A DNA stretch of 63,908 nt, filler included, from Basidioascus undulatus (lineage: Eukaryota), in the NCBI GenBank assembly GCA_000826855.1. It is 19 parts of 19 records of this genome, joined end to end, with 100 filler letters (N's around TTAATTAATTAA, not from the genome) between each part and the next. Parts side by side here need not be neighbours in the genome. Positions count along the whole stretch, not along the records: positions 57,189 to 59,362 come from JTLS01002887.1; 18 more parts are not named here. The stretch is one strand, 5' to 3'. The translations under genes and the position numbers were made by a program. Of the stretch, positions 57,189-60,617 are shown one piece after another. The number at the start of each line of letters is the position of its first letter. Positions within the stretch are counted from its first letter, which is position 1. The notes beneath the pieces are model-generated. The model searched no databases, was not told the origin of the DNA, and was given only the letters and a program-made list of their open reading frames with translations.

Positions 57189-57295
57189 GGCGGGAGAGTG
57201 AGCGAGAGGAATGAGAGGGTCGTTGGAATAATGAGCGGTGCGAGTGCGAGGTGGGGTCGGAGATCTCCGAGAGAAATTGGTATATTGAACTGCAT
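57189..57295 (-). CDS. Possible N-terminal fragment of a hypothetical protein
   Basis: MQFNIPISLGDLRPHLALAPLIIPTTLSFLSLTLP running into the spacer. Confidence 0.3.
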
Positions 57296-58313
57296 GGTCT
57301 CGATGAGTGAGTGCGATGCACGGAGACCAGTGTGAGCGCGAAAGAAGGCTGATGAGGGCAAGAAGGAAAGAAGACGCGCTGGCATTTTGCTTTCCGTGTC
57401 TCGGCGCTGCGTTAGCACGGCCTTGGCGGCCTTCCCTCAGCTCTGCCTTCGTTCTTCCTCGGAAGTATTGCTGGTTAGGAAGAAACCCGATGTTTCTCGA
57501 AAGTTTCATCTTAAGATACACTACCGGTGACCAGGGATGTCAGTCCAGTGCGTGTAGCACCAGCAGCGACGTCCGTCTAGCAAACGCCGTGCATTAAGAG
57601 TCAAGCGGAGTTCGCGAAACATAGAGCATTCCACCAAAAGGCACTTGGGAAAATTCATAATTTTTGACGGTATGAAGCCTACACGATGCCGTTCGGCCCG
57701 TTTGGCTGGTGTCTTCGGCGAGCGTTGTCGGTAAGCAGATGATAACCGGGTCCGACTGCCCAGCCTGTAGGGAAGAATCCGCCCGGAAGTCGGGTACTTG
57801 TTAGTGTCCTGAGTTCCCGTTCAAACCTCAGCAAATAAAACTTACCAACTGACAGGCAGCAGCGCACGTTGACCTCGTGGACTGATGCAAACGCGATTAA
57901 TGACACCAATTCTGTAATGGACCAAGATACTCGGACGCATAGAAACTAACAACGGCCTAAGAAGGCAGCTTTGGTGGTGTTTCCAAGAATGTAGACAGCT
58001 CGCACGGGAGCGACCTCTCACCGGCTTGCAGTGCTGTGCCAGTAGCTTTACCCCTCCTCTTCATTCGATTACAGATACGGGTCTCGAGGAAAATACCCGA
58101 GGGAGAAGATATTGCAAGAACGACTGGTCCAGCTATTGTGCTCCACTCATTCGGTTTTCGGCGAACGGGAATGCAGGCAGGCTCAGGCTTCCCTTGCACT
58201 CGCCTCAATTTGTGTGGCCGCGTCGCCCAGACTCATGCCGGCAGAATATAAGTGGTTTTCCCCCGACTTTCTGTATGGGCCCATCCTTCACCTGACCCCA
58301 TACATACACCACC

Positions 58314-58394
58314 ATGTCCCTCTCTCCTCGCCGCCAGCTCATCGAAGCTTACTTCGCCGGCGTCAGCGCCAACGACTTCGACGCCGCCTGCTAA
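58314..58394 (+). pseudogene. Interrupted 5' end of a SnoaL/NTF2-like gene
   Basis: TATAAG at about 58247, CT-rich leader, CACCACCATG start context, C3-rich codons MSLSPRRQLIEAYFAGVSANDFDAAC*; stop coincides with an abrupt change of sequence style. Confidence 0.55.
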
Positions 58395-58472
58395 AGGGAG
58401 AGTGCGGTTGACTCTCCCTGCGAAGCCCTTTTCTCTTCGCATCCCCCGCATCAAAATGCAGGGAAGGGAGAG

Positions 58473-58555
58473 CTCGCCATACTAGATACTGACAACTAGA
58501 CTTACGGGGAGGAGGCACGTGTTTTTTTAACTCGAATAACAACCTCCTGTCAACG
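58473..58555. repeat. Bipartite structured repeat, copy 1
   Basis: CTCGCCATACTAGATACTGACAACTAGAC (58473-58501), 42-nt spacer, CTCCTGTCAACG (58544-58555). Confidence 0.9.
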
Positions 58556-58558
58556 CTT

Positions 58559-59119
58559 GTGGCCTGGATCACTACTGTGCCGTCTTACGGTTACCTTGCT
58601 CTGGGCCTAATCTCATTGTTTGTGGCCCTGACCGCTTCGGATTCTTGGCGTTCATTCATTAGCTACACGTGGCAGAAATTTCTAACTACCGCTTCGGAGG
58701 TAGCGGCAATCAGTCTTGTTGGGGCCTGTGCAAGCATCGTCGCCCTGCTTTCTCTAAATAAAAAAAGCAATGGTGGCCTGTCAGGATCTGGAAACAATGG
58801 CCCAGGATCACAGTCTAACACTGGGCCCGGTTCCGCATCCTTTTTCCTTCCTTTCGGTCTAGAACCAGACTTCTCAACATACGGCGGGAACCTGATTCTG
58901 GTCACACTTATTGCACTGTACTGCCTGTCCAGTGTTTTCGGTTACTTCCTGGTCAACCACGTTATCGACTTGACCCAACTGGACAGTCGGTTTCCTCGCC
59001 TTTACCGGTGGATCGCTCGCTACCGATACCTATCGACAGCATACGTAACTGTACAGCTTCTGCTCCTCCTTTCGGCGCTACTGCTGATTCTTTATATCAG
59101 TGTTAGTCTGCGTGTGTAA
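58559..59119 (+). CDS. Multi-pass membrane ORF (about 4 TM, Gly/Ser/Asn linker), no in-frame ATG
   Basis: 186-codon open frame from GTG; C-terminal LYCLSSVFGYFLVNHVIDLTQLDSRFPRLYRWIARYRYLS plus TM helix. Confidence 0.6.
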   Translation: MAWITTVPSYGYLALGLISLFVALTASDSWRSFISYTWQKFLTTASEVAAISLVGACASIVALLSLNKKSNGGLSGSGNNGPGSQSNTGPGSASFFLPFGLEPDFSTYGGNLILVTLIALYCLSSVFGYFLVNHVIDLTQLDSRFPRLYRWIARYRYLSTAYVTVQLLLLLSALLLILYISVSLRV

Positions 59120-59284
59120 CCAGACTTATAGCCTCTCCCTTCCCCTCCGCATCTTCTTCCCCTTCCCCTCTGCTTCTTCTAAGTAAAAGCGTGGGGAGAG
59201 GGGAGAGGTGCGCTCTCCCCTCCGGGGAAGTAATTCCCCTTCGTTTTTAATCTCTCACTATAGGAAGAGCACGGCGAGCTCGGA

Positions 59285-59357
59285 CTCGCCGTACTAGATA
59301 CTGACAACTAGACCTGTGCGCACCAGACAGCCGATGACTCGTTGGCTCCTGTCAACG
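59285..59357. repeat. Bipartite structured repeat, copy 2
   Basis: CTCGCCGTACTAGATACTGACAACTAGAC (59285-59313, 28/29 identical to copy 1), unrelated 32-nt spacer, CTCCTGTCAACG (59346-59357). Confidence 0.9.
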
Positions 59358-59462
59358 AACGCNNNNNNNNNNNNNNNNNNNNNNNNNNNNNNNNNNNNNN
59401 NNNNNNTTAATTAATTAANNNNNNNNNNNNNNNNNNNNNNNNNNNNNNNNNNNNNNNNNNNN

Positions 59463-59816
59463 ACCCCCCTGCGTCCAAGTACACTCCTCTTCACCCCCCT
59501 CCAGGAGTACAAGACCCGCCAGGCCTTCGCCCAGCCCTTCCTGGCTCTCACGCACTACGTCGACCTCTCCGCCCCGCCGCACGAGCTCGTGCTCATGAAG
59601 GGGGACATCACGTCGCTGTCGGCGGACCCCGAGCGCGGCGTGCTCGACGCGAAGGACGCGCAGCTCTTGCTGCTCGCGATGCAGAGGTTCTACTTGGCCG
59701 AGGAGGAGGGACATGGGAAGGAGGCGCAGGAGAGGGCGAGGTTGCTCAGGAGCTTCCATGAGCGCCCGGAGAGCTTCGATTTCGGGAGGCTCTGCGAGGT
59801 CGCGTATGAGCTGTAG
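59463..59816 (+). CDS. ATP11: F1-ATPase assembly factor Atp11, C-terminal part
   Basis: LFTPLQEYKTRQAFAQPFLALTHYVDL, LVLMKGDIT, DAQLLLLAMQRFY, LLRSFHERPESFDF. Confidence 0.88.
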   Translation, partial: TPLRPSTLLFTPLQEYKTRQAFAQPFLALTHYVDLSAPPHELVLMKGDITSLSADPERGVLDAKDAQLLLLAMQRFYLAEEEGHGKEAQERARLLRSFHERPESFDFGRLCEVAYEL

Positions 59817-60617
59817 AGGGGAGAAGCATGGATGGACCGGATCGGATGCAGGGGAGGTGAGTGCGTGCGCGCGTGTGTGGGCGGAAGTGCGATAGCGGAT
59901 TGGTGGTCGTGCATGCGGGGTCGGGCGCGCTCACTCTTCGCACTCGCACACTCACTGCTGCTCACCTCAATTGTTGCTCCTCGATCACGTCGGACGTAGT
60001 CTTAGCATCGCACTCCATCCATAGTCGGACGCACCGTGTCAGCAAGCACTCGATTCATCGCCGGCTTGGCCGAGCCTACTTTCTCACGCGTTTCACCGCT
60101 CAACACTTCCCGTCATGTCCCCTCAGACATCTATTCAAACACTGTTTGATCGTTCATATCTCTCCGTATCCAACTCTCCATAGAGGTCGTACGCATACTA
60201 CCGCGTACATACAACGGGCAGTCGTTCTCGACGATGAGCGCACGCCTTCGCTTATGGACGATCGCAGTCCACCGTCCACCGGCCCCTGGACCGGCGTTCT
60301 GGGTCCGTCGCCCCTTCACTCTTCCTTCCCCTTGCTGACTATATCACATGCAACACAACGTTCGCAACTCACTCTGACGCCATCGCACCATGGCGCAATC
60401 GCAAACTCTCTGCGCGCCCTCGCCCCGGTCTTCTCGCTTCGCCTCGCGTCGGAGGACGAAACGCTTCTCCTTCGCTTCTCGCTTCTCGCCCCCGTCCTTT
60501 TCGCTCTCAGTCTCGTCTCTCCCTCGCCAGCGTACTATCGTTAACGGTCATTTTCCTCGTGCTATCTCCCCATCCGCGCACCTAGAAGTTCCACCTCGAC
60601 ACTCGCTTGTGCCCGCC

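Follow-up and report, generated by a model that had tools for sequence, protein, structure and literature searches.

What kind of DNA sets a small membrane-protein reading frame between two copies of one short, two-part repeat? The question is raised by a contig of the fungus Basidioascus undulatus (JTLS01002887.1), which lies in a window of 63,908 bases, the whole stretch of DNA analysed here. A sequence-only reading of this locus had proposed as its main idea that the repeat is a structured or self-cleaving RNA and that its two copies release a unit-length RNA of about 0.8 kilobases (kb). Our analysis points elsewhere. The downstream copy is the edge at which a single-copy nuclear locus merges into a sequence of very high copy number, and we put at about even the chance that positions 58395-59362 are DNA of a high-copy replicon, probably mitochondrial, residing inside the nucleus.

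The window consists of 19 contigs placed end to end, 18 of 2147-2214 nucleotides (nt) and one of 22,747 nt, and the joints between them are artificial linkers of the form N44-TTAATTAATTAA-N44. The contigs are mutually unrelated, and anything that appears to cross a linker is an artefact. The downstream copy of the repeat stops at 59357, 5 nt short of the contig end at 59362, where the next artificial linker begins, so the sequence 3' of this copy lies outside the window. Contigs from four sequencing runs were compared with the stretch: X1, X2, X3 (a soil metagenome) and X4. X1 and X2 contain 0.85 and 0.83 of its sampled words.

The repeat and the edge of the high-copy sequence

Each copy of the repeat comprises a 29-nt block (block B) and a 12-nt block (block C, CTCCTGTCAACG) separated by a spacer. 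Between the copies, block B is identical at 28 of 29 positions and block C at all 12. Start-to-start spacing is 812 nt for the longer block and 802 nt for the shorter, and the spacers measure 42 nt (58502-58543) in copy 1 and 32 nt (59314-59345) in copy 2. A 22-nt core occurs twice in the window, with no occurrence in the other 18 contigs, and it never arose in 100 shuffles. The two spacers are unrelated, their alignment score being equalled in 552 of 1000 shuffles, and the flanks upstream of the blocks resemble each other at chance level (130 of 1000 shuffles), although MAFFT aligned some of their hairpin-forming letters. The sequence-only reading had described this arrangement, and its description holds. 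Its view that the pair is not a simple duplication also stands, as short near-identical blocks are set in unrelated sequence.

Hairpins accompany both copies. Those reported earlier for copy 2 are present: an 8-base-pair (bp) hairpin, ACGGCGAG/CTCGCCGT, at 59271-59292, which is absent from copy 1, and GCCGAUG/CGUUGGC inside the spacer. Upstream stretches are more stable than dinucleotide shuffles (n=200), and a hairpin cluster therefore precedes each motif copy. Cluster 1 includes a 21-nt block (block A, 58447-58467) that also stands upstream of the motif in a relative from the soil metagenome. For the second cluster, the fold of 59120-59250 has a minimum free energy (MFE) of -44.8 kcal/mol (z -2.59; 4 of 200 shuffles equally stable). 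The layout common to both copies is a hairpin cluster followed by the motif, and in copy 1 an open reading frame (ORF) starts 3 nt past block C.

Sequencing depth places copy 1 in single-copy DNA and copy 2 in high-copy sequence. A single 1381-nt contig spans 57236-58616 at a depth of 18 in X1 and 41.4 in X2, and a 26-kb reference contig has depths of 18.1 and 48.2 in the same runs; this makes copy 1 and the junction at 58394/58395 continuous single-copy sequence. Depth in X2 is 40.7 over 58800-59302. An X2 unitig of 302 nt that starts at 59273 and extends 212 nt past the contig end has a depth of 4668, about 114 times single copy. An 800-nt contig of X1 extends from 58800 past 59362 and continues for another 237 nt, at a mean depth of 192. 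Summed X2 depth at 59282 is 9349.2, and subtraction of 4668 and 40.7 leaves about 4640 for the other incoming path, whose last letters before 59245 are ...GAAGAAGAAGC. Nearly all copies of the high-copy sequence therefore have one upstream sequence, and the locus in the window is the exception. The stretch that the two have in common begins TTTTAATC. The merge at copy 2 also accounts for the end of the contig, since the assembler stopped there.

The left half of the contig is transcribed nuclear DNA, because it contains a spliced 81-nt GT..AG intron and a gene start with a third-position GC content (GC3) of 0.85. An X4 contig skips the intron; the skip reads CT..AC on the plus strand, which is GT..AG on the minus strand, and given this spliced joint X4 is probably RNA. 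X4 has no contig over 57992-59362, an absence that should not be read as silence. The 26-codon ORF whose stop codon falls at the junction resembles in its GC3 the long ORFs elsewhere in the window (0.8-0.88). This ORF is probably a gene start cut off by insertion or rearrangement.

Table. Features of the contig, in positions of the whole window
Feature	Position	Strand	Remarks
Contig with the finding	57189..59362		2174 nt; GC 0.53; artificial linkers at both ends
Motif copy 1	58473..58555	+	Block B 58473-58501, 42-nt spacer, block C 58544-58555; single-copy depth
Motif copy 2	59285..59357	+	Block B 59285-59313, 32-nt spacer, block C 59346-59357; within high-copy sequence
Stretch in common with high-copy sequence	59245..59362	+	Likeness to high-copy path and soil contig from 59245; exact merge at 59273
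Hairpin cluster 1	58395..58472	+	MFE -31.6 kcal/mol, z -2.05, 8 of 200 shuffles equally stable
Hairpin cluster 2	59120..59244	+	Long imperfect palindrome and GGGGAAG/CUUCCCC-type hairpins; single-copy depth
186-codon ORF	58559..59119	+	GTG start; four hydrophobic segments; C-terminal 76 residues match a small membrane-protein family
ORF segment with second genomic copy	58587..58890	+	About 3% different; other copy at one end of a 26,384-nt contig (X1, X2)
26-codon ORF MSLSPRRQLIEAYFAGVSANDFDAAC	58314..58394	+	GC3 0.85; TAA exactly where foreign-looking sequence starts
Intron, 81 nt	57765..57845	-	GTAAGT...CTAAC...CAG, fungal-type; skipped in an X4 contig

The membrane ORF and its family

The ORF between the two copies lies in an open frame of 208 codons that lacks any ATG; its first common start codon is the GTG at 58559. 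A frame of this length was reached in 5 of 2000 shuffles of the region and 28 of 1000 shuffles of the contig, and is therefore longer than chance allows. Its GC3 is 0.52, as against 0.8-0.88 in the long ORFs of the window. Pfam, PHROG families and a word-based protein search returned nothing for it. A phmmer search over 1.84 billion representatives gave four matches (E-values 3.5e-6 to 5.5e-4), and a profile search for relatives gave 18 proteins of 93-277 amino acids. Built from these 18 relatives with the window ORF left out, a profile matches it at an E-value of 1.2e-14 (50.3 bits over 76 profile positions). It is the sole match among the 1224 six-frame ORFs of the window, where the next best E-value is 0.49.

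This profile match identifies the ORF as a genuine, divergent member of a hitherto uncharacterised family of predicted small membrane proteins (P0001-P0020). The conserved part of the family is a two-helix domain (..LVAL.CL.NI.GY.. / ..KYPRL.K.I.RYK..). A structure model of the window ORF is a helical hairpin with a mean predicted local distance difference test score (pLDDT) of 68.8 and two long helices at 81-88. Against the PDB, the best profile match had an E-value of 0.15 and fell on a transmembrane helix. A search for longer fused forms of the ORF found none, which is weak evidence. Searching loci for relatives gave none in viral contigs; one weak match in a bacterial metagenome-assembled genome (L002, E-value 5e-4 among the candidates) was taken as spurious.

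The family probably consists of basidiomycete mitochondrial or mitochondrial-plasmid ORFs, because its composition is AT-biased and some of its members lie on contigs of 40-86 kb. Relatives average 0.46 in FYMINK and 0.10 in GARP residues, an extreme AT-type composition; the two nuclear ORFs of the window have FYMINK values of 0.12-0.13 and GARP values of 0.35-0.36. The contigs of three relatives measure 86,368, 68,494 and 40,026 nt. Basidiomycota is the group in which the nearest Atlas clusters occur most often, which serves as a lead only.

Part of the ORF has a second copy in the genome. This paralogous segment differs from the window by nine substitutions (four silent, five replacing), a 9-nt gap and a 1-nt gap. 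The sequence on both of its sides is unrelated and the motifs are absent. The copy thus ends inside the ORF and carries no motif, and what was duplicated is therefore not the motif-bounded unit.

Origin of the sequence between the copies

These observations would fit together if the two motif copies were two versions of one short intergenic module, made up of a hairpin cluster, the 29-nt block, a free spacer and the 12-nt block directly before a gene start. The fungus would carry such a module on a replicon of very high copy number, most likely its mitochondrial DNA (mtDNA) or a mitochondrial plasmid. Part of this replicon, with a small mitochondrial-type membrane-protein ORF, would now sit in a single-copy nuclear locus, where it would cut a nuclear gene start at 58394/58395. 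In the home replicon the module would most plausibly serve as a gene-leading signal (a promoter, 5' leader or processing site) and would not be a catalytic RNA. The sequence-only reading had pointed towards fungal mitochondria. It was probably right about origin, but the locus itself lies at nuclear single-copy depth.

Several results weigh against this reading. Positions 58395-59272 have no high-depth words in common with the high-copy sequence, and identity begins only at 59273. A simple recent transfer of one contiguous piece is therefore unfit, so that an older or mosaic insertion, or loss of the ORF from the replicon since, has to be assumed. The high-copy sequence was read only as far as 59362, and its mitochondrial nature is inferred. 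The module and ORF have a GC content of about 52%, which is high for fungal mtDNA. The ORF lacks the ordinary ATG start of its relatives, its FYMINK and GARP values (0.23 each) are far from theirs, and no relative is linked to a named mitochondrial genome. Five replacing and four silent changes relative to the paralogue give little sign of selection. Finally, X1 is possibly the source data of the assembly, and the clearly independent run is X2 only.

Some features favour the idea of a structured RNA: a variable insert is enclosed by conserved blocks, and a CTAG/CTAG stem appears in three of the four plus-strand minimum-energy folds. On the minus strand, UUGACAG and UUGUCAG can make seven pairs, as they do in the fold of copy 2. 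Yet Rfam gave no match anywhere in the window at the gathering score, and none overlapping block B or C at E-values up to 10 (57800-59900 and 59120-59362, both strands). The permissive matches that did appear were weak microRNA-like ones within 59123-59267, on the neighbouring hairpin cluster, and weak ones of no relation to it at 57855-57888 and, in the next contig, 59507-59837. Fold energies lie within the shuffle range in all four plus-strand and both minus-strand folds of the motif unit. The motif units are no more stable than shuffles (z -0.37, with 73 of 200 equally stable, and z -0.11, with 92 of 200), and for the 100-nt versions the plus-strand z values were +1.11 and -0.81 and the minus-strand values +0.47 and -0.72. 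The letters of the CTAG stem and of the TGACA/TGTCA pairing are identical in the two copies, the only ones available, and therefore no covariation can be read from them. The 8-bp hairpin, moreover, belongs to copy 2 alone. A structured or self-cleaving RNA at this locus thus seems very unlikely indeed. Three other candidates were dropped: block B as an intron branch point and acceptor, which had neither donor nor frame to match; a tRNA-sized gene formed by the B-spacer-C unit, since ARAGORN found no tRNAs in the window; and an A/B-box short interspersed nuclear element, to which no likeness was seen by eye.

A nuclear origin of the high-copy sequence itself is a different matter. It could be a ribosomal DNA (rDNA) intergenic spacer at the edge of its array, or it could come from some other tandem array or from a young family of transposons, with copy 1 a degenerate orphan piece in the flank. 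A depth of 26-114 times single copy would suit rDNA as well, and one upstream path for nearly all copies is what a tandem array with a single edge unit should give. A spacer in a GC-rich nuclear genome comes nearer to the GC content of 0.53 than typical fungal mtDNA does. In several eukaryotes, moreover, RNA polymerase I promoters are known to have TATAGG-type start sites. This account nevertheless leaves a member of a mitochondrial-type ORF family between the copies unexplained, and the whole window lacks a match to any rRNA model. The excess over single-copy depth also differs about fourfold between X1 and X2, which comes more easily to an organelle. On balance we regard a nuclear repeat as unlikely, though deserving of real weight. 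Its variant with a long terminal repeat (LTR) is unlikely in its own right, as about 99% of the depth, and not about half, falls on the shared upstream path. LTR retrotransposons and solo LTRs were accordingly rejected: about 4640 of 4668 in depth lies on that path, and TG..CA ends were not found for the shared stretch, which starts TTTTAATC.

The sequence-only reading had also raised a small mobile cassette. In this account the motif, ORF and hairpins form a mobile or recombining cassette of the high-copy replicon that has its own B-spacer-C leader and inserts, or is lost, beside a resident motif copy. It is compatible with a replicon origin of the insert and not opposed to it. The soil-metagenome relative bears on it most directly. 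This X3 contig (record 18, 234 nt, depth 3.5) matches 58447-58467 at 20 of 21 positions, continues with 31 other letters and then matches 59245-59353 with four differences. The window thus holds 777 nt where the soil contig has 31, and those 777 nt contain just one motif copy together with the ORF and hairpin cluster 2, as an insertion or deletion of the unit would give. The organism's own high-copy path has an upstream 30-nt sequence similar to the 31 letters of the soil contig, and near-identical blocks beside unrelated spacers fit the same picture. The comparison, however, is with one low-depth contig on a 21-nt anchor, and metagenome joints with a side shorter than 30 letters are often unreliable. 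The paralogous fragment at 58587-58890 stops inside the ORF and carries no motifs, contrary to a unit that moves as a whole. Terminal inverted repeats, target duplications, a recombinase and an endonuclease are all absent. A mobile cassette appears quite unlikely. Miniature inverted-repeat transposable elements, integron cassettes and inverted-repeat-bounded elements were rejected, as none of six inverted-repeat pairs bounds the unit.

A joint picture may be drawn from the promoter-like letters in the high-copy stretch. CTCACTATAGG at 59254-59264 equals what we take to be the T7-group promoter core at 11 of 11 positions, and agrees at 16 of 23 with the 23-nt consensus as we assume it. In its context (59246-59270) TTTTAAT precedes and AAGAG follows, and it lies within the high-copy stretch, where motif copy 2 follows 25 nt downstream. 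It occurs once, is absent from copy 1 and may be due to chance, and the stretch had no matches in phage or viral collections. The B-spacer-C module, the hairpins and CTCACTATAGG could together form an expression or recombination signal of a GC-rich (about 50%) high-copy extrachromosomal replicon with moving cassettes and repeated entry into the nucleus, a notion that we hold to be a long shot. Within the same joint picture, and with as slender a chance, this replicon would be a basidiomycete mitochondrial plasmid or an atypical mitogenome.

It is scarcely credible that the similarity arose by chance or that the contig is an assembly chimera of unrelated pieces. The contig is short and unplaced and has a repeat at its end, as might be expected of such an error. 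Against this, the 22-nt core was not reproduced by any of the 100 shuffles, the 58394/58395 junction and copy 1 fall within one 1381-nt single-copy contig in two runs, and the 800-nt contig of X1 passes through 59273.

Likeness to known systems and occurrence elsewhere

If the insert is replicon DNA, its closest counterparts would be nuclear segments of mitochondrial DNA (NUMTs). As in NUMTs, organelle-type sequence is found here at nuclear single-copy depth next to nuclear flanks that contain a spliced intron and the start of a nuclear-type gene. Continuity with nuclear single-copy DNA is given by the 1381-nt contig, the intron and the gene start. The locus also merges into a sequence of about 114-fold depth that is presumed to be organellar. 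Unlike NUMTs, it is identical to the high-copy sequence in its last 90 nt only, and for the ORF part these runs offer no high-copy equivalent.

The motif itself invites comparison with the intergenic signals of fungal mitochondria, among them the yeast nonanucleotide promoter, the 3' dodecamer, GC clusters and double-hairpin elements. Like these, it is a short near-identical sequence that recurs before genes beside GC-rich hairpins, but it is bipartite with a free spacer and is present in two copies only. Varkud satellite RNA and retrozymes are ribozyme-bounded unit-length RNAs. Direct repeats about 0.8 kb apart around a unit recall them, whereas the present repeats match no ribozyme model and show no excess fold stability, and copy 2 just forms one section of a longer high-copy sequence.

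For the ORF, the excerpted account in PMC4201751 describes Agaricomycete mitogenomes that carry transmembrane non-conserved ORFs (ncORFs), possibly derived from plasmids. Compared with the ncORFs of that excerpt, the window ORF is likewise small and hydrophobic, and its relatives have a mitochondrial-type composition and lie on contigs of mitogenome size. It differs from them, as far as the excerpt goes, in having a conserved family of at least 18 clusters (90% identity), in its GC content of 50%, in lacking an ATG and in its place within nuclear DNA.

Searches for the motif elsewhere covered prokaryotes, viruses and metagenomes. The bipartite motif had no matches in 185,579 prokaryote genomes, motif scans of viral contigs gave none, and blastn and tblastn found no match in phage and plasmid collections. 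A scan of 241 million metagenome records returned one exact 21-mer match, 21-24 nt long, in a 1668-nt phage-like contig (L001; PHROG E-value 2.4e-7). By a rough estimate this match is within chance. Given a weak second likeness (CAACCTC..CTGT) 113 nt downstream, L001 was left undecided, and it was not used. In L001, which is from groundwater, the 21-nt core of block B occupies 1477-1497, and 1636-1647 holds an inverted copy of the last 12 nt of block B (GTCTAGTTGTCA). This inverted copy lies about 140 nt downstream, in a 390-nt stretch with no convincing ORFs, and may reflect chance or a common protein-binding site. A literature search for the motif strings returned only texts on T7 primers.

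As it stands, the locus is ordinary: organelle-type or repeat DNA that ends a short unplaced contig. It carries a warning that contig-end repeats in linker-joined assemblies can mimic bracketing signals. Its by-products are a conserved small membrane-protein family that has no Pfam model and is apparently of basidiomycete mitochondria, and a candidate intergenic signal. If the replicon has a phage-type RNA polymerase, the T7-consensus-like CTCACTATAGG would be of interest.

Some further observations concern the nuclear side of the contig. A minus-strand transcript probably crosses 57667-57940. At the left contig end (57189-57265), depth is twice single-copy in X1 and X2, with a branch at 57265. 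An X4 contig of 1350 nt at a depth of 121 covers 57189-57409 and suggests a well-expressed gene that runs off the end of the contig.

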